A stretch of 64,000 nt of DNA, from the NCBI GenBank assembly GCA_964016885.1, contig OZ024740.1:107632001-107696000 (forward strand). Reading direction: 5' to 3'. Made by a program: the position numbers and the translations under genes. This document shows positions 5,074-55,678 of the stretch, one piece after another (positions within the stretch are counted from its first letter, which is position 1; every line of letters starts with the position of its first letter). Under the pieces are notes generated by a model, which saw only the letters and a program-made list of their open reading frames with translations, was not told where the DNA came from and ran no database searches. This stretch comes from Eledone cirrhosa (taxonomy: Eukaryota).

Positions 5074-6131
5074 ATCATCATCATCGTTTAATGTCCATCT
5101 TCCACGCTTGCATGGGTTTGGACGGAAGTTTTCCCACTTGAGGCAAGATTGGTTGTTTTACTCGCATAGGACTGTCTGGCGGGTTTTCTACGGCTGGATG
5201 CCCTTCCTAACACCAACCACGTTTACAGTGTGGACTGGGAGGTTTTTACCGTGTTACCTACACGGCCACATTACAGCGTGGACTGTGTGTTTTTTGTCGT
5301 GACACCTACACGACCTCATTTGTTTTGGACTGGATGTTGTGGTACCAACATAACTTCACATTTAAGGGGGTGGTGTGGATGGGGTGGGGTTAGTGGGACA
5401 GGGGGGTGTATTTTGTTAGAGGTGCCTACTGATTGTAGGTTTCGCTTTTTACTTAGGCAAGACGGGTCTTCTGTATAACTGTGTAGCGCCAAAGATCTCG
5501 GTCCAATGACATTGTCTTGGAGAGGTGTAAGTGTGTGGGAGGTCGGAATTTATCAAGTCGTCCCAGGTTTTTCTGGGTCTGACCGTCTATATTATCGCCC
5601 TGCACTTTTTAATACAGCTGTCGTCTTTCATGCGCATCACGTGACCGTACCAACGTAGTCTTCTCTCGAGTAAACAACATCTGATCCCTCTTATTCCTAA
5701 TTTCTCCCTTAGTTCGTTTATGCTTTGCCGTTCACATATATTACTATTACACATCCAGCAGAGCATGCAAGCTTCGTTTCTCTCTAGTCTGCATATATCC
5801 TCTGCACACAATGCCCAGGTCTCACTGCCATGTAACATTGCTGTTCGTATGCAGGCATCATACAGCCTGCCTTTCATTTTTAGAGAGAACCCTTTAGCGG
5901 CCAATAGTGGTATAAGCTCTCTGAACTTTTTCCATCCCGTTCTGACTCTAACTACTGTACTTTCAGAGCACCCTCCCCCACTGCTGATTTTGTCACCCAG
6001 GTAACGGAAGCTGTCCACTATTTCTATAGAACCCTCTGTGCAATGGAATGAGCTAGTATTCTGTGGGCACTTGTTGCTACTTATTGCACCAGAACACCGG
6101 CCACATATAAAATCTATATTCTTAGTTAGCT
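5074..6131 (-). mobile_element. 5'-truncated RTE-clade LINE (same family as 31030-33660)
   Basis: ORF 5587-6018 nearly identical to the C-terminus of the 705-aa ORF; same 3' UTR and (GAT)n tail; flanked by (TA)n. Confidence 0.92.
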
Positions 6132-10837: not shown

Positions 10838-13698
10838 TACAGACAGACAGACATACAGACAGACAGACGACGACGACGACGACGACAACAACAACAACAA
10901 ACATTTTATGGTCATTTTCCCTGTTATATGGTGGCTACAATTTCATAAACATCTATCAAGTAGATCTACTTTTATTAATTTATTAACTTTTTGCCTATTT
11001 ACAAGACAAGCTTCTCTAGTTTGCTTTATCATCTGCACCCCCCCCCTCACTAACAACCAGAGTCATTTCTCCCCCCCCCCCATCATATTTAGCCATGTCT
11101 TTCTTAGTCTTCCTCTTCTTTTACTTTCTTCCACATTTACTTCCATCACTCCTCTCAACCAAGCATTATTGCCTTTCATCCTTACGGGGTCAATAAAATA
11201 AAGTACCAGTAATGTACTGGTTATTGGCTGGCCTTGTGCCAAAAGTAGAAACAATTATTGTCTTTCCTCAACACATGACCCAACCATCTCATTACATTTC
11301 TCTTCACAATATTTATTACTGACTATTCCCACTATCCCTGCAATTCATTGTTTGTCCTCCACTCTCGCAGCAATACTCCACCCAATCACTAAACCATTGA
11401 TTTTACTCCTTTATTTCTAAAATATGGCATGCAATGGAGGAGTGAGTTTGATATTTAATAGTACAGTGACAACTCCAAACGTGTTTCAGTCTTATTAGAT
11501 CTCAGCAATAGAATCTAACTATGACTGCTAGGTCTTAGAATGACTAGAGAGATGTGTAGAATTTGTGAATAAATGCAGAATGACATTATAAATTAATAGC
11601 TATGTATCTTAACTTTATTTTAGCATTGCTCTGTGCTATGAGTACTACTTCTATCATTATTCATCTGAATCTACTACCAATTGCAACACTAATAACACAC
11701 TTAAAAAATTAGGTTGGAACAGCAGGTAGCATGGTTGTACCATTCCAAAGGATTAGTTGTTATTCTTTCCACATTTTCCTAGTTGATGTCTATCTCCAAC
11801 AGGTCCTCTTGGAATGTTCTGCACCAGGTCTTTTTAATACAACCCAAATCTCAAATAAAAGCTCAAATGAAGGTTGCCTGTTTGTCTATTTGAATGACTT
11901 TACTAAAGAAAAAAAATTAACTTCTCAAACTGTTTCCTAGAATGTGCAGTACCATTTAAATGAAAAGGATTACTATGAAGAAAGAAAACAATTCTTTGAA
12001 GTTAAATTACCTCCCTTGGCATTTTATATATCATTGGAGCTTTTTATTTTAAGGAAAGGGCTACAAGGGCAGATAACTTCAGATTGTGTTGTGTCTTAAT
12101 TTATTAGGAGTTAACATCTTACTGTAAGGCTTTCACATCAGATATATATACATCTTTGGTAATAAAAAAAAAAAAAAAAAGAGTATTCAATGCATGATGT
12201 GTAGAATTTATATTTATTAGAAGACAGCTGAGGATTCACTTTGTTGCTACACAGTGATGCATGGTTGACCAGACAATATTGTCATTAATTGTTTCTACTT
12301 TTGGCACAAGGCCAGCATCACATATCCTCAATTAAGTCGCTCACCCGCCACTATTTGGGGTCAAAAATGTCTGTGTCTATATATGTGAGAGAGGTGGGGG
12401 AGAAAGAGAGAGACGTGTGTGTTATATTTGAATTCCAAAGACTATTTTTTTTTTATTAACCTTTTCGCTATGAAACTTTTAATGAATTGCACAAATAATT
12501 TTGAAAATAATCAAGAATTTAATCATTTCTTGCACCACACCTGAATGTTGGAGTTTTCATCCTCCATCCAAATCTATAGTACCAGAGTCACAGAACTTTG
12601 TTGAGGAAACCCAGACTAGATCTAGCGAGTAGCATCTGGCCTCCACTACTAGTTCCTGCTCCTTACCTGTAAAGGTTGTAATATTCTAATTACCAATGTT
12701 AAGATTTGCTCCCTTCTTTGCGGCATGCACAATCTTTGAGTGTTCATCCTACACCAACCAGGACAGGTCACAGGCCCATCACTAGATAGAGTGTGTAGCT
12801 TGTAGCTCAGGGAGTTGTTCCAAGAAGTGCTGTTATTTACCCGTAATGAGAGATCACAGCTCCGATATTATGGATGTGTGGTCAGAATGTCTAAGGAAAG
12901 AATTACTGGACTGATTTTATGGCCAAAAACCAAGTGGCAGGAGACCCAAGGGTAGATCCCTAGCAAGATGGTTCGATAACATCTATGAGCTCAGCTGGTT
13001 TTGCTTGGGGATCCTGCAAGATCAATTCGAGACAGTTGCTTCTGACAGGACCACTGGAAGGTGGGCTTGAAAACTCTGCCCCCCTTCCTCCCATACACAT
13101 ATACCAGGAATAAGCGGGCAAAGATGAAGAAGAAAAGAAGATCAAGAATTTAGAGGGATTTAGTTGTATAACTAACTTTCTCATTATTAATTTAGTTTTT
13201 GGAACATAACTTAAGAAAGGTTCTTACATAAAATTATGTTGGAAGATTATTATATAAATATAAACACTTTAAAACAAACAGCTTTGTATCATAGAACCAG
13301 GGGCAGTTTGGGGTGGTTTGGTATAAAAAAGGTTAACCCTTTTTATGGGATTGTTTTAACCCTTTCATTATCTTTGTAAACTGATGTTTGGAAGGTTACT
13401 TAACAACAATTTCTTAAATTATGATGGAAGGTTTTAATATAAGTATGAACATTTTTAGGTCATAAAAATGAACATTTTTCGATCATAAAAATGGACAGTT
13501 TCACATCATAAAAATGGACAGTTTCACATCATAAAAATGGACAGTTTCAGATCATAAAAATGGACAGTTTCAGATCATAAAAATGGACAGTTTTGAATAA
13601 TAAAACCATGGATAGAGTCTGTAATAAAAATGGTAAATGGAGTTAGGTAAATGGTAATGGAGTTAAGTAAATGAAGTAATAGCTTAATTGTTGTTTAC

Positions 13699-19011: not shown

Positions 19012-19279
19012 TCATCATCATCACTGTTTAACGTCAATTTTTTCATGCTGGCATGGGTTAGATGAGTTATCCTGTTGTGAGCAATGCTAGGTCATGCTCA
19101 TACAGAACCGATTTTGGCTTGATTTCTACAGCTGGATGCCTTTACAACCTTATTTACAGTGAGTAGTGGCTGTTTTTTGTCATGGCGCCTACACAACCAC
19201 TTTACAGTATGGACTGGGTGCTTTTGCTATGACACCTACACATCCACTTTATGTATATATATATACATATATATATATA

Positions 19280-22551: not shown

Positions 22552-22775
22552 TCCAAAATAGTGCAAGTGTGCAAGTGTAAAATAGTGCGAGTGCAAAATA
22601 GTGTAAGTGTAAAATAGTGTGAATGCAAGTGTAAAATAATGCGAGTGCAAAATAGTGTAAGTGTAAAATAGTGTGAATGCAAGTGTAAAATAATGCGAGT
22701 GCAAAATAGTGTAAGTGTAAAATAGTGTGAATGCAAGTGTAAAATAATGCAAGTGTAAAATAGTGCAAGTGCAAA
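22552..22775. repeat. Minisatellite, ~57-bp period built from AAAATAGTG(T/C)AAGTG subunits
   Basis: Visible tandem periodicity; explains ORFs 22326-22822. Confidence 0.9.
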
Positions 22776-23097
22776 GATAAGAAAATGATTAAATAAAAAA
22801 TAATTAGTAAAATACACTCCATGGCAAAATGTTCTGCTTAAAATATGTCATCTATAGTTTATTACATGATTGATTACTAAAGTAAAGCAGTTGATTTGGT
22901 AGAACTGTTAGAGGATTGAAAATGTGCGTCTTGACTCTCTGAACTCTGAGCTCAAATGCTACTCAGGTATATTTTGCCATTTATTCATTTGGGGATCAAT
23001 AAGAAAATTCCAGAGTTCAGAGAGTCAAAACAGATACCAGAAATTATTTCACCTATAGTTTTTAATAGATTCTTGTAAAAATTTGCAATCATTTTTC

Positions 23098-23462
23098 ATC
23101 ATTTTACGTCCGCTTTTCCCTGCTTGCAAGGGTGGGATGGGAACTGATTCTGGCTTGATTTCTACAGCTGGATGCCCTTCCTAACACCAACCTCATTTAC
23201 AGTAAGTGCTGGGTGCTTTTTTTCCATGGCGCCTACACGTCCACTTTACAGTGTGGGCTGGGTGCTTTTTTGCCGTGGCACCTCCACGACCACTTTGCAG
23301 TGGAATGTAGGGACTCCAGTCCTATCATCTCATTTCTACAGCTGAGTAAACTGGAGCAATGTGAAATAGTGTCTTGCTCAAGGAAAAAACACATCACCCG
23401 GTCTGAGAATTGAACTTACAACCTTTCGATTGCAGGCCCAATGCTCTAACCATGTGCCTCCA
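23098..23462 (-). mobile_element. tRNA-derived SINE with RTE-derived 3' tail (young family)
   Basis: Reverse complement of 26689-27015, with an extra RTE-UTR segment. Confidence 0.9.
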
Positions 23463-38391: not shown

Positions 38392-41300
38392 CTGGTGAAA
38401 CATGGAAAAGAGATACCAGCTGGTCTGAAAACACTGTACCCACAACAACTGACAATAAAGAAACTGAAAAAACTCTGGGAAACTAAATCAGAACAACCTG
38501 CCATCCCCTGCACATAATCATATACTGGAATCAAGGTACAAATTGTTGTCCTTTAATGCATGTAGTATATGCAATAAGATTTATCTTTTTGACTCCTACG
38601 TCAAAAGCATCAACCCTGACTTTATTACAGTCACGGAAACTTGGCCACATCCCTTACTCTGTGATGGGGTTTTCAGCATAACTGGCTACAACCTGTTTTG
38701 TAAAGACCACATTAATCGTGGTGGTGGTGGTGGTGTAATGGTCTACATTCGGTCAAATTTGTCGGCAATTCCTTGTGTTGATTTGAACCAATCACAGCAG
38801 GAAGCTTTTTTCTGCGATATACGTATGACCATGTCAACACTGTTACTTGGAGTCGTTTACCGTCCCCCAAATTACCATCAGGATACTCAACTTTGTGATA
38901 TCCTCAGAGCTGCTGCCAGGAAAACAGCCACTTATCTTTTCATTGCAGGAGACTTCAATCACCCTGAGATTGACTGGGAAACCTTTCGTTGGCCGCCAAG
39001 TGCAAATGACTTCCTTGAGCTAGTGCTGGACTCGAATTGGTCCCAAGTAGTCACCTCCCCAACAAGAGGGGACAACACTTTGGACCTACTCTTCACCACT
39101 ACTCCTGAAACGGTCATTAGTGTTACTGCTGAGGAACCTTTAGGTGACTCTGATCATTGCCAACCTATCCCTCATGGGCAGTAACAAGAACCACAACCAT
39201 CTCCAAACTGCTCACTTTGACTGGAATAAAGCAGACTGGAACTGTTACTGCACCGAGTTGCAACAGCCAAACTGGCTTGAGTTCTACGACTCTGGAGATG
39301 TCAACACTGTACTCAAGAACATCCTGAGCTCAATATGGACAGCATGTGCAGCATCGGTGCCACGTAAGCGTAAAAAACATCCCAAAAGTGCAATTTGGGA
39401 GACGGCAACAGTCCGTCTTGCCAGAAAAGAACAAGAGTACAAACGTGAGTACAAACTGCACAAATCAGACATTAATAGGAAGAGGCGAAATAGATCGTCC
39501 AACTACCTCAAACAGGTGACAAAAAAGGTAGTGCTTCAATTTGAGCAGCGCATAGCAACCAGCCCTGACAGTAAGGTGTTCTGGAAGTATGTTCACTCAA
39601 AGCAGAGGCCTCACTCTCCAGTTGGTCCTCTTCACAATCCCCACACAAACCAGGTTACTGACGACCCCAAGGAATGCGCAGAGCTCATTGCTGAATGCTA
39701 TGCAGGCATTTTCACTATTGAAGACCAGAGTGTACCGTCTCCACCACCTATGACACCGGATTCTATTACAACCATGGAATTTACACCTGCAATGCTGCGA
39801 CGTCACCTAAAAAATAAACACAACCATGCTTCTCCTGGTCTTGATGGTGTTACGTACCTGCTTCTTAAAAGTGGTGGGTACTTCCTTCTGCACCAGTTAT
39901 CACGCTTCTTCCAATTCTGTCTGAACAACGGTGCTACTCCAGAACAGTGGAAAACTGCCAGTGTCATTCCTCTGTTCAAAAAGGATGACCACACATCACC
40001 TGTGAACTATCGTCCAGTCAGTCTTACTAGTTGCATTGCCAAACTGATGGAATCCTGTGTCAGAGAAACACTTTGGAACTTCTGGAACTCTCACAGTCTT
40101 ATCCGGCCCTCGCAATTTGGATTTATCCCCAACTCCAGCTGCCGTGATCAACTTATCGAGTTTCTTGAAGACATCACCCAGATCACTGATGGCAGCTCAT
40201 GGGTGGATGTTGTTTACCTTGACTTTGCAAAAGCTTTCAATTCTGTGCCACACAAAAGGCTTATGGCAAAACTCTCTGCAATGGGTGTGAAGGATGATCT
40301 TTTTAATTGGTTGAAGTCCTTCATTCTCAGTTGAAGAGAGGTAGTCACGGTTCTGGGACAGCATTCCTCACCATATAAGATGTCATCTGGTGTACCACAG
40401 GGATCTGTTCTTGGCCCCCTTTTGTTTGTGGCATATATTAATGACATAGATGCCAACTTAAAGAATGCCACAGTACTAAAGTACGCAGATGACATCAAGC
40501 TGTACCTTGAGATAAAAAGGACAGATCCTGAACACTATAGATCTTGCTTGCAGTCTGACCTGGACGCAATGCAACAATGGATCTCAGACTGGCAACTCAA
40601 GCTAGCTGTGGACAAGTGCACCACCATGCATTTTGGGAGTAAAAACCCAGCGTCCACATACTCCCTCCACAGCACTAATATCAAGAAGTCTTCTTGTGAA
40701 TGTGACCTGGGCATTACGGTCAGCAGCGATTTGCGTTGGACGAAGCACGTCTCTAAAATTGTCAAGAGAGCCGAGGGTGTCTTAGCATCACTCAGCAAGA
40801 CCTTTGTCAGCCGCTCTCCAGCTATCTATTTAAGGCTGTACATGGCTATGGTGCGGCCACACTTAGAATTTGCATCACCAGTCTGGAACCCCTATCTTGC
40901 TCAGAACATTGACCACCTGGAAACTGTTCAGAGACGTGCAACCAAGCGAATACCCTCCATCAGGCATCTACCATACTCTGAGCGCCTTGCTTCCCTGGGT
41001 ATGGATACATTGAAGCTCCGACGCCTGGCAACTGACTTGGTAAACACCCACAAAATTATTAACCATCTTGCCAACAACAACACTGAGTACCTTTTTGATT
41101 TCCATGTGTCTAACACATGTGGGCATGCTCACAAAGTCAGAAAACAGTACAGTTCCCATGACTTTTGGAAGCATTTTTTCACGCTCAGAGTTGCTGAAGC
41201 ATGGAACAAACTACCTGTATCAGTTGTTAACTGTCGAGACACTGCATCCTTTAAGGCCTCCATGCTTCCCGAGATTCGCCAACACTACACCTAATGTTCC

Positions 41301-42082
41301 TCCTCCATACACATACACGCATGTATATCATGACTCATACACTGCTCCGATGGATGTGTAACAGTAATATACATGAACGACAGAGCATAAATGAATTGAG
41401 AGAGAGACTGAGCATAAGAGGAATCAAATGCTGTGTGCAGGAGAGGCGGTTGCGCTGGTATGGACATGTGATGCGTATGAAGGATGACAGCTGCATAAAA
41501 AGGTGCAGAGCACTAGAAGTTGATGGAAACCGCGGAGTGGGGAGACCCAAGATGACCTGGGATGAGGTGATAAAAGCCGACCTTACCCAATTACACCTCT
41601 CAAAGGCAATGACACACGACCGTGACTTCTGGCATCACGCAGTAATACAGAGTACCCGACCTCCCATGGGTACAAGCTGAAGCATATAAACAATATGCCC
41701 CCACACCCTCCACCGCAAGGTGGTCGTGGAGGTGCCACGGCAAAAAAGCACCCAGCCCACACTGTAAAGTGGACGTGTAGGCGCCATGAAAAAGCACCCA
41801 GCACTCACTGTAAATGAGGTTGGTGTTAGGAAGGGCATCCAGCTGTAGAAATCAAGCCAAATCAGTTCCTGTATGAGCAAGGCATGGTCAGCCGACCAGA
41901 CACTGCCCACAACAGGACAACCCGTCTAACCCATGCTAGCGTGGAAGAAGGCACGTAAAACGGTGATGATGATGATGATGATACACTATTCACTTCCCTG
42001 ACATTTGTGTATTATTCTATGTACTATACATGCACCTTTGACGAGTTGTAGTGCACCTGCGCACTTTACACAATAATTTCTT
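38392..42082 (+). mobile_element. CR1/Jockey-group LINE (APE endonuclease + RT), one frameshift and one stop, 3' UTR interrupted by an RTE copy
   Basis: ORF 38543-39184: TETW, GGGV, YRPP, GDFN, LDL, SDH (APE); ORFs 39144-41294: NYRPVSLTS, LDFAKAF, GVPQGSVLGP, YADD, WN.LP. Confidence 0.93.
41344..41980 (+). mobile_element. 5'-truncated RTE LINE with 7-bp target-site duplication
   Basis: Same subfamily as 17133-17932; ATACACT at 41337-43 and 41981-87; GAT tail. Confidence 0.92.
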
Positions 42083-51391: not shown

Positions 51392-51604
51392 AATCAGTTG
51401 CTGTCTGGCTTGATAGACACTCTCAATGGGTCCAGTTATGTAGACTGTACCTTTCCGTAAGGGGTTTACATTGTTGGGGTCAGGAAAGTAAACATTGGCC
51501 CCTGTCCTCTGCATAATCTGTTTAATATTCATATCTCCACGACCAATCATGAACAAGTGGTGCTGAGGAGCAATTTCCAGCTGCATGCTGACAGTGAGGC
51601 TAAC
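51392..51604 (-). CDS. BICC1: Bicaudal-C exon, KH domain
   Basis: ttag|GTT...ATT|gtgagt; VSLTVSMQLEIAPQHHLFMIGRGDMNIKQIMQRTGANVYFPDP...ESVYQARQQLI; 213 nt. Confidence 0.96.
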
Positions 51605-51634
51605 CTAAAGTAAAAACATAGACAAGCAAACAAC

Positions 51635-52040
51635 AGTCATCACCAGCATCATTACCATCATCATCATCATTACCATCAACATCATCATCCCCATCGTCAA
51701 CCTCATCAACACCATTACCCACCCCCACCACCATTGTCACCCCCCCCCCATGACCATCATCCTCATCATCACCACCACTACCACCATCATCCCTCTGACC
51801 ATCACCACCATCACTAGCATCATCACCTTAATCACCACCACCACCACCACTACCATTGCCTTCATTACCACCATCACCACTATCATCATCATCTTAATCA
51901 CTACTACTACTACCACCACCATTGCCACTATCATCATCATCTTAATCACTGCCACTACCACCACCAACACCATCATCATCATTTTAATCGCTGCCACCAC
52001 TACCACCACCACCACCACCAACATAATCATCATCTTCACT
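51635..52040. repeat. (CAT/CAC)n degenerate trinucleotide repeat
   Basis: Direct inspection; abuts the acceptor of exon 51392-51604. Confidence 0.95.
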
Positions 52041-52129
52041 AAAATCAGCACTAGTTGGTTGGCTGGTTACAGTAGGGAAATAGTATTGTTTACAGATCTT
52101 CATGCAATGAACTGTTTGTAATTTTACAC

Positions 52130-54572
52130 AAGACACCATATTAACCATCATACCCCCACCTCCAGCATGTCACCATATTAACCATCATACCCCACCACCA
52201 GCATGTCATTAACCATCATACCACCACCTCAAGTATGGCATAATTAACCATCATATCCCCACATCCAGCATGACACCATATTAACTATCATACCCACACC
52301 TCAAGCATGGCATAATTAACCATCATACCCACACATCAAGCATGGCATAATTAACCATCATATCCCCACATCCAGCATGTCACCATATTAACCATCATAC
52401 CCACACCTCAAGCATGGCATAATTAACCATCATACCCACACATCAGCATGGCATAATTAACCATCATATCCCCACATCCAGCATGACACCATATTAACTA
52501 TCATACCCACACCTCAAGCATGGCATAATTAACCATCATACCCACACATCAAGCATGGCATAATTAACCATCATATCCCCACATCCAGCATGTCACCATA
52601 TTAACCATCATACCCACACCTCAAGCATGGCATAATTAACCATCATACCCACACATCAAGCATGGCATAATTAACCATCATATCCCCACATCCAGCATGT
52701 CACCATATTAACCATCATATCCCCACATCCAGCATGTCACCATATTAACCATCATACCCACACCTCAAGCATGGCATAATTAACCATCATACTCCCACAT
52801 CCAGCATGACACCATATTAACCATCATACCCCACCTCAAGCATTGCATAATCAACCATATTACCCACACCTCAAGCATGGCATAATTAACCATCATACCC
52901 ACACCTCCAGCACAACACCATATTAACCATCATACTCCCACATCCAGGATGACACCATATTAACCATCATACCCCCACCTCAAGTATGTCATAATTAACC
53001 ATCATACCCCCACCTCCGGCATGACACCATATTAACCATCATACCCACACCTCAGCATGGCATAATTAACCATCATACCCACACATCAAGCATGGCATAA
53101 TTAACCATCATATCCCCACATCCAGCATGTCACCATATTAACCATCATACCCACACCTCAAGCATGGCATAATTAACCATCATACCCACATATCAAGCAT
53201 GGCATAATTAACCATCATATCCCCACATCCAGCATGTCACCATATTAACCATCATACCCACACCTCAAGCATGGCATAATTAACCATCATACTCCCACAT
53301 CCAGCATGACACCATATTAACCATCATACCCCACCTCAAGCATTGCATAATCAACCATATTACCCACACCTCAAGCATGGCATAATTAACCATCATATCC
53401 CCACATCCAGCATGTCACCATATTAACCATCATACCCACACCTCAAGCATGGCATAATTAACCATCATACTCCCACATCCAGCATGACACCATATTAACC
53501 ATCATACCCCACCTCAAGCATTGCATAATCAACCATATTACCCACACCTCAAGCATGGCATAATTAACCATCATACCCACACCTCCAGCACAACACCATA
53601 TTAACCATCATACTCCCACATCCAGGATGACACCATATTAACCCTCATACCCCCACCTCAAGTATGTCATAATTAACCATCATACCCCCACCTCCGGCAT
53701 GATACCATATTAACCATCATACCCACACCTCAAGCATGGCATAATTAACCATCATACCTCCACCTCCAGCATGACACCATATTAACCATCATACCAACAC
53801 CTCAAGCATGTCATTAACCATCATACACTCACTTCCAGCACCATAATAGCAATCGTAGCCATACCTCCAACATGTCTATAACCATCGTAACCACACCTCC
53901 AACACATCAGTAACCATCATACCCACACCTCCAGCACCATAATAGCAATCATACCACACCTCCAACACATCGGTAACCATCATACCCACACCACCAACAC
54001 ATCGGTAACCATCACACCCACACCTCCAACACATTGGTAACCATCATACCCACACCTCCAGCACCATAATAGCAATCATACCCACACCTCCAGCACCATA
54101 ATAGCAATCATACCCACACCTCCATCATGCCTTTAATCATCATACCCACACCTTCAACACATCATTAACCATCATACCCACACCTCCAACAAATCAATAA
54201 CCATCATACCCACACCTCCAGCATGACACAACCATCATACTTACACTTCCAACATCTTTAACCACCATACCCACACTGTAGAAATGACAAATTAACCATC
54301 ATACTCACACTTCCAACAAATCAATAACCATCATACCCACACCTCCAGCATGACACAACCATCATACTTACACTTCCAACATCTTTAACCACCATACCCA
54401 CACTGTAGAAATGACAAATTAACCATCATACTCACACCTCCAACAAATCAATAACCATCATACCCACACCTCCAGCATGACACAACCATCATACTTACAC
54501 TTCCAACATCTTTAACCACCATACCCACACTGTAGAAATGACAAATTAACCATCATACTCACACCTCCAACA
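52130..54572. repeat. ~30-37-bp minisatellite with higher-order structure, overlapping the exon 54563 splice donor
   Basis: Unit TTAACCATCATACCCACACCTC(A/C)AGCAT...; 127-bp higher-order repeat x3 at the exon-proximal end. Confidence 0.95.
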
Positions 54573-54796
54573 TTATTTAACAAATGTTCCATAAGACGGG
54601 CTGTTGCTTCCTTCACCATCTTGGCATTATAGACAGAGCCTCGCACCATTATGATGGTCATATATGACCGAGGTTTCTGTTTGAAGGTGATTGTCACATT
54701 GTAGACCTTCTGTAAATGAACCAGCTGTGATGAAGCTGGATCTGATAATGGAGGTGACAAAGACATTTCAAATATAAAAACCAGTGGAAGTAAGTC
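54563..54796 (-). CDS. BICC1: Bicaudal-C exon, KH-like domain
   Basis: gcag|GAC...GGT|gtgagt; DLLPLVFIFE...ITFKQKPRSY...EATARLMEHLLNNVGG; 234 nt, within ORF 54512-54802. Confidence 0.93.
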
Positions 54797-54961
54797 CTGC
54801 AATTAAAAAGAAAGAAAGTAAGAAATAGATTAATATTAGACACAAGGACTTAAAATGTGTAGGATGGATATATTCAATTAAATATACCCAAGTAAAATAC
54901 CAGTTAACTATTTGGGTATATTTAAGCTCTACACGCATATACATATATATATATATATACA

Positions 54962-55240
54962 AATTGGAAAAAAATGAAGTTGGGATGCTTCAATGAATGT
55001 GTAATAGTAATATACGTAAATGGCAAAGCCTAAATGAACTGAGAGAGAAACTAGGCATAAGAGGGATCAGATGCAGTATGCAGGAGAGGAGACTGTGTTG
55101 GTATGGACATGTGATGCGTATGAAGGATGACAGCTGTATAAAAAGATGTAGAGGGCTCAAAGTTGATGGAAGCTATGGAGTAGCAAGACCTAGAAAAACT
55201 TGGGATAAGGTGATAAAAGCTGACCTTTCTCTGAAAAGAT
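54962..55240 (+). mobile_element. RTE LINE C-terminal fragment
   Basis: ORF 54997-55242 MCNSNIR...RRLCWYGHVMR. Confidence 0.85.
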
Positions 55241-55678
55241 GAAAAGCAATGTTGACCATGGCAGCATTTGAACCCAGAATGCAGAGAATGTGAACAAATG
55301 CCAAGGTATTTAATGTGGCTCTCTAACAACTCTGCCAATCTGTTGCCTTTCTTCGCTAAGATAACAGACACCTAATAACACCTTTGGTTATTTTATTTCT
55401 CTGAGATGACAGATATGTCAAACGATATGTTCCGTTTATTGAAATATATTTTAAAGATCTCAGGTGAATTAAACGTCCTCATAAAGGTGTTAGGTGACAT
55501 TTGTCCACATAAATCTACATCTGTCCACTAATAAATGAGGATAAATATAGTAACCAGTGATGTCTCATAAAAAAATTACAGTAAATTAATTAATGTAATA
55601 TAATTTCAGTCGTCAAATTAAACTAATTACAGTCAATTAATTAAACTAATTTCAATAAACAATTTCATTTAGTCTTAC

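Follow-up and report, generated by a model that had tools for sequence, protein, structure and literature searches.

The closest described systems are minisatellites whose first repeat unit lies over an exon-intron junction. Human F7 carries in IVS7 a VNTR of 37-bp units, the first of which lies across the donor of exon 7, and splicing uses the most upstream donor alone (Borensztajn et al. 2006, PMC1557585); the portion of that paper drawn on here also names junction minisatellites in 6-16 (IFI6) intron 2, CBS intron 13, LMNB2 (100 bp) and PDGF intron 4 (81 bp), and gives two proximal pseudo-donors as used in CBS and 6-16. In amphioxus, the cited passages describe "mirages" in Adh3 and in the globin genes BflGb6 and BflGb9, where exon-intron boundaries are tandemly duplicated and normal splicing is undisturbed (PMC3087553), and according to Hellsten et al. 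(2011, PMC3265369) a segmental duplication can create a functional intron. Our literature searches returned no report of a junction-spanning repeat in a cephalopod.

The window, the whole 64,000-nucleotide stretch of Eledone cirrhosa DNA that was analysed (contig OZ024740.1, positions 107,632,001 to 107,696,000), contains an array of this kind on its minus strand, in an intron of BicC1. An earlier note made from the sequence had reported an exon junction and an adjoining array; both were found where it had put them, and the minus-strand exon end enters the array unbroken. The gene features at the junction are the following (a slash marks the splice junction here and below):
54563..54796, minus strand: BicC1 coding exon for the KH_BICC1 KH-like domain, 78 codons, phase 0 at both ends (PF22985, E 9e-22)
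54563-54573, minus strand: exonic part of unit 0, the last 11 nt of the KH_BICC1 exon
54555..54565, minus strand: authentic 5' splice site GGT/GTGAGTAT, with intron position +1 at 54562
51392..51604, minus strand: next BicC1 exon, KH_1 domain, starting GTT in phase 0 (PF00013, E 4e-13)

The closest relatives of the gene are the BicC1 proteins of Octopus sinensis (94%) and Argonauta (90%) and a Sepia-containing cluster (84%), and a search of solved structures gave weak matches to KH domains. BicC1 as a whole maps here, and its first matched exon is about 400 kb upstream; measured from the window, the first matched coding exon lies ~390 kb away (G000:C1:107696000-108084921), which implies a very long 5' intron region. 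The exon ends as NNVGG/VSLT in each of the 14 full-length proteins from the Octopus cluster and in Argonauta, and the 4/4 Sepia-type proteins read NSVG/VSL, one glycine shorter. The extra octopod glycine codon (54563-54568, minus strand) falls within the repeat unit and, since it is present in both Octopus and Argonauta, it is old. Two small minisatellites elsewhere in the gene, at 22569-22798 and 13445-13593, lie 63-95 nt from BicC1 exon ends, and neither spans a junction.

Because the next exon begins in phase 0, the donor is fixed after 54563. A 3,499-nt contig from run X1 covers 54561-54795 with 0 differences and then continues into 2,508 letters of other sequence; the 2 nt by which it overlaps the intron are GT, which are also the first letters of the next exon. 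Run X1 is not recorded as RNA and is treated as such from its exon-limited cover and its size, and the contig fits use of the first donor, with the proviso that assembled contigs drop rare forms. The same run has 0 cover on 54440-54529 and 52036-52235, where blank cover is no proof. The first unit of the array spans a real exon-intron boundary, with 11 exonic nt inside the unit and the boundary set by the homologous proteins and by the exit point of the X1 contig. The true donor has a matrix score of 4.5 (gene median 7.3) and a U1 duplex energy of -7.4 kcal/mol (median -6.8).

The array itself is made up of head-to-tail units of minisatellite size and divides into zones of different structure:
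52130..54573, minus strand: whole minisatellite, 71 units of 30-38 bp with 42 distinct unit sequences, each unit corresponding to -11 to about +23 of the junction
54182..54562, minus strand: proximal zone, in which a 127-bp block of units 0-3 occurs three times as a higher-order repeat, with 0-1 differences between copies
53810..54181, minus strand: middle zone, units 12-23 of about 32 bp, with mean nearest-neighbour identity 0.89 and 82% of 31-mers unique
52130..53809, minus strand: distal zone, units 24-70, mostly of 35/37 bp, with nested higher-order repeats of 178, 213 and 678 bp
51605..52129, minus strand: remaining intron, about 90 nt of unique sequence and degenerate GGT/GAT triplet repeats (here the slash separates two triplets), with the acceptor AG at 51606-51605

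Splitting the ~2.44-kb array on its core motif gave 71 units including the true junction and so 70 intronic copies, at the upper end of the 65-70 that the earlier note had estimated from length. The intron runs from 54562 to 51605 (2,958 nt) and the array fills 82% of it. In TRF the array spans 52134-54581, and scores reach about 1900-2070. The likeness of the copies to the exon stops sharply at -11 (54573), with 52/70 copies matching at -11 and 0/70 at -12. The nested blocks of distal units 24-70 are near-perfect (0.98), and the longest exact repeat among them is 259 nt. In short-read runs X2 and X4, which are one sample and possibly the assembly's own, contig depths are about 2-6 times that of the unique flank and match assembled multiplicities of 3 to about 7; because the depths fit in this way, the array is not an assembly artefact. 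No canonical G-quadruplex motif was found in the array.

All matches to the unit lie at this locus: 23/23 in a BLAST search, and 10/10 and 25/25 in two exact-pattern searches of the 3-Gb genome, with 0 matches for the reversed controls. The BLAST search skips very common words and the two exact-pattern searches count every match; none of the three found the unit at another locus in the 3 Gb. The unit extends from -11 to about +23 of the junction and has an AT dinucleotide at each end, which suggests duplication by slippage. Its exonic 11 nt encode residues conserved in Octopus and Argonauta (V-G also in Sepia), and because these bases encode conserved residues, sequence would have passed from the junction into the array. 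The true junction likely seeded the array. The earlier note had proposed just this, that a functional splice junction seeded the satellite, and the proposal is supported by a unit that occurs at a single locus, holds exactly the last 11 exon bases and encodes conserved residues.

We are rather confident, on these grounds, that the repeat is a single-locus, junction-spanning BicC1 minisatellite that began with a duplication of ~34 bp and grew neutrally, and that its extra donor-like copies are ignored, most likely because the first donor is the one used. The early event would have been a tandem duplication of -11..+23 at the BicC1 junction, older than the split from the related species called organism B below and possibly older than that from Octopus. 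Neutral slippage and unequal exchange would account for growth, and later bursts would have produced the triplication of 127 bp and the distal zone of 35/37-bp units. Donor 0 would be chosen by exon definition or by upstream-first choice, and rare mis-splicing would be cleared by nonsense-mediated decay.

The relative ages of the parts of the array were assessed by comparison with other species. A contig of organism B, 1,049 nt long, follows this locus colinearly over 54441-54928 and has a further 510 bases, so the proximal units that it covers predate the split from organism B. Counting listed differences only (8 of the contig's 27 differences are unlisted), there are 10 substitutions (8%) and 1 insertion in the 122 array nt of the first 127-bp copy, 11 substitutions in 175 nt of unique upstream intron (6%) and 7 in the 234-nt exon (3%), so the divergence of the array appears to resemble the unique intron rate rather than the exon rate. 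The first 34 intron bases have 0 listed differences from organism B and the first 48 are colinear with an Octopus-like peptide, which could reflect constraint. Organism B has 0 cover on 52036-52235, a blank that is no proof, and RAD-seq run X6 has 1-2 reads on the part of the array examined.

The Octopus-like peptide is the 16-residue tail of a protein that reads through the donor (P0027). Back-translated, the tail has 12/42 mismatches to the intron start, where 22.5 are expected (p about 3e-4 under two nulls). When its second half is placed against the junction itself, the best of 40 offsets tried is 34, with 8/24 mismatches; the p of about 0.011 applies to offset 34 alone, which was preset from the length of unit 0, and the back-translation is degenerate. 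A search for further cephalopod read-through peptides returned one candidate, P0027 itself. The tail gives modest evidence that the first duplication is older than the split from Octopus. Within the array, the 127-bp triplication, with its 0-1 differences, looks very recent, the distal 1.7 kb is likely a recent expansion, and middle-zone units 12-23 are likely older.

How good are the copies as donors? Read in the donor register, the 70 copies give GTGGGT (35), GGGGAT (9), GGGGGT (5), GGGAGT (5), TGGGGT (4), GTAAGT (3) and GTGAGT (2), with 7 singletons. GTRAGT is kept in 5/70, G stands at +4 in 58/70, and T at +2 is present in 48/70 and absent from 22. The five unit-register GTRAGT copies (54498, 54435, 54371, 54308 and 54244) all lie in the proximal zone, within the proximal 320 nt, and the distal zone has none in unit register. 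The splice signal is therefore reiterated into the intron in a form more degenerate than that of F7. The earlier note had given GTGGGT or GTGGGG for most distal units; the first is indeed the commonest hexamer, while GTGGGG does occur, but in a register offset by 2 nt.

All 312 GT sites were scored with a matrix built from the gene's 16 other donors and by pairing with the U1 5' end of the same genome. (The U1 snRNA genes of this genome form tandem arrays with about 2.67-kb spacing, at G000:C2:180973544-180995099 and on C1128.) At a matrix score of at least 6.85 there are 6 array sites (2.5 per kb, compared with 1.0 in the gene's other introns), at 4.5 or more, the score of the true donor, 48 (19.7 compared with 5.5 per kb), and with U1 pairing equal to that of the true donor 12 (4.9 compared with 1.05 per kb). 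At the stricter thresholds donor-like sites are 2.4-4.7 times denser in the array than in the other introns. Three proximal copies, AGT/GTAAGTAT, have a matrix score of 7.1 against 4.5 for the true donor, with about equal U1 duplex energies. The array is enriched in weak donors and has few strong ones; unit-by-unit donor scoring, which the earlier note had recommended, found most copies weakened, with the exception of three proximal copies that exceed the true donor on a small matrix. The enrichment in donor-like sites and the proximal copies that outscore the true donor run counter to a neutral reading.

Splicing from units 1-4 or from the -2 site would meet a stop at the exon end or no more than 16 codons beyond it, and an in-frame TAA at +49 precedes every donor from unit 2 onward. 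Because of these stops no productive alternative protein is possible from those sites, and productive alternative isoforms were rejected, each alternative donor tested giving a premature stop.

The earlier note went on to suggest that the copies act as U1 decoys, take part in telescripting or exert length-dependent control of BicC, and these suggestions found no support, given that most copies are weakened and the tested alternative donors yield stops. In the described class with this architecture, splicing normally takes the first donor (PMC1557585, PMC3087553). In the broader form of this idea, the array would modulate splicing or elongation at a weak donor through U1 snRNP or through proteins that bind G-runs or UG, serving as a decoy, in telescripting or as an intronic enhancer. 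The true donor does lie below the gene's matrix median, the 12 array sites that pair with U1 as well as it does are over-represented by computed energy (densities above), GGG runs number 24 per kb in the array and 7 elsewhere, and human tandem repeats associated with splicing variation have been catalogued, according to the part of that catalogue cited here (PMC10078293). We nevertheless think such modulation unlikely, since G occupies +4 in 58/70 copies, T is missing from +2 in 22, no unit-register GTRAGT occurs in the recently expanded distal zone, divergence from organism B appears neutral-like, and the intron is merely 3 kb long with two ATTAAA/AATAAA-type hexamers. Telescripting is expected to matter more in the ~400-kb upstream region than in a 3-kb intron.

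A second alternative concerns the recent triplication, which places the following candidate in the proximal zone:
54372..54402, minus strand: candidate 31-nt stop-containing micro-exon, with an acceptor-like site before it and GTAAGTAT after it

The segment lies between an acceptor-like tail in unit 0 and the GTAAGT in unit 2, and its copies at 54529-54499, 54402-54372 and 54275-54245 are 33, 160 and 287 nt past the true donor; the first, at 33 nt, is likely too close to it to be spliced. If the triplication had made a working poison micro-exon, copies 2 and 3 would be spliceable, and a share of the BicC mRNA, scaled by copy number, would be lost to decay. The sites around this stop-introducing segment are of near-median strength: the acceptor scores 9.9 (median 10.2 for 14 real acceptors) and ranks among the best 0.5% of 3,266 intronic AGs, the donor scores 7.1 (median 7.3), and inclusion is predicted to bring a stop 5 codons past the exon. 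Pseudo-exons as strong as this one, however, arise by chance in 57 kb of other introns (1 of 25-60 nt, 3 of up to 150 nt and 6 of up to 300 nt), the matrices were built on 14-16 sites, and the X1 contig, RNA by inference, passes unbranched through the junction without the micro-exon. The triplication, moreover, is very recent, at 0-1 differences in 127 nt, so the micro-exon is not an old regulatory element. We regard a working poison micro-exon as very unlikely, and give the same low standing to the fuller proposal that a seed as old as the Octopus split and a recent 127-bp triplication produced a 31-nt poison micro-exon by which BicC dosage is tunable by copy number through nonsense-mediated decay. 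Were it true, a regulatory exon would have been caught at birth within a "mirage", and repeat copy number would be tied to the dosage of a conserved developmental RNA-binding protein.

The last alternative, that a pre-existing dispersed satellite inserted or spread beside the exon and either converged on the junction or overwrote it, might explain the extra octopod glycine, whose codon lies inside the repeat unit (NNVGG/VSL in octopods, NSVG/VSL in the Sepia cluster), but it is highly improbable because there is no other copy of the unit in 3 Gb and because the extra glycine, being common to Argonauta and all Octopus entries, is old. With every unit match at this locus, a dispersed satellite is rejected, and the genome-wide search that the earlier note had advised, with a common dispersed satellite as its counter-case, leads back to this locus only.

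The preferred reading, a minisatellite seeded by the BicC1 junction, agrees with the general abundance of minisatellites in this genome. Sampling at round coordinates (20 stretches of 10 kb requested, 2 absent) gave 10 minisatellites in 18 stretches, 6 of them of at least 500 bp, that cover 15% of the bases. On scaling to 3 Gb, with 100,000-200,000 donors assumed, chance alone would, as a rough figure, place the start of some hundreds of arrays on a junction. Triple AG/GTRAGT arrays, sought across the genome, gave 10,624 matches, and the reversed control gave 3,666; these counts are driven by copy number and yield no usable enrichment. For 4/4 listed AG/GTRAGT arrays, no coding exon was evident by eye in three-frame translation of the 420 nt upstream. 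One of the arrays seen (L082, G000:C1:664644-666986, minus strand) is a 41-bp minisatellite with 57 perfect AG/GTGAGT copies, beside which no coding exon is evident; a short AT-rich stretch, possibly the end of a non-coding exon, precedes its first, diverged unit. Another (L083, G000:C1:37421400-37426000+, plus strand) is a 30-bp minisatellite with at least 143 CAG/GTGAGT copies and no coding exon evident upstream.

Other repeats were observed in the window. A fragment of a very high-copy dispersed element, with thousands of matching contigs, lies in the upstream intron at 54970-55340 and has kin at about 41300-41640, beside a LINE. A LINE-like reverse transcriptase ORF at 39144-41294 (plus strand, one stop, 396 + 319 aa) lies antisense to BicC1 in an intron. 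A unit of 47-49 bp occurs as dimers at 5223-5320, 19153-19251 and 23196-23302 and as a 20-copy array on another chromosome (L067:327-1291), and is a dispersed satellite or an element-borne repeat.

Set beside the known systems, the BicC1 array is closest to F7 as far as the cited portion of that work describes it: in both, the first monomer lies over the exon-intron boundary, the units are similar in length and the donor is reiterated into the intron. The F7 donor hexamer given there is GTGGGT, the commonest hexamer in the BicC1 array, and because that donor works in F7 the GTGGGT copies of BicC1 are not necessarily dead. F7 is described as having 5-9 copies, each with an exact copy of the true donor and 4 exonic nt, whereas in the BicC1 array the copies number 70, take in 11 exonic nt, have for the most part changed donors and show nested higher-order repeats. 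BicC1 also differs from CBS and 6-16 as summarized in the same source, in that any pseudo-donor tested would truncate the protein and none appears in the single X1 contig (RNA by inference). The amphioxus mirages, in the cited excerpts, are like it in being boundary duplications in an invertebrate, with units of 10-160 bp and concerted evolution, and BflGb6, at 3-6 units, has far fewer than BicC1. The intron in the cited part of Hellsten et al. resembles the 127-bp triplication on paper, since duplication sets a donor and an acceptor at a splice-competent distance, but that intron is functional and the BicC1 triplication offers candidate sites only. The recent triplication is nonetheless a concrete case for the question of whether junction repeats spawn poison exons or new introns, and the array's layers of different age, with a seed apparently common to species, offer a handle on how long such repeats persist. 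On its likely reading the array matters little beyond adding a cephalopod example, and upstream-first donor choice probably holds in a mollusc as well. The BicC1 array is a new and large example of a described class, that of F7 IVS7 and the amphioxus mirages, and most likely a neutral one; it has 70 copies against up to 25 in the cases given in the cited portions of the literature.
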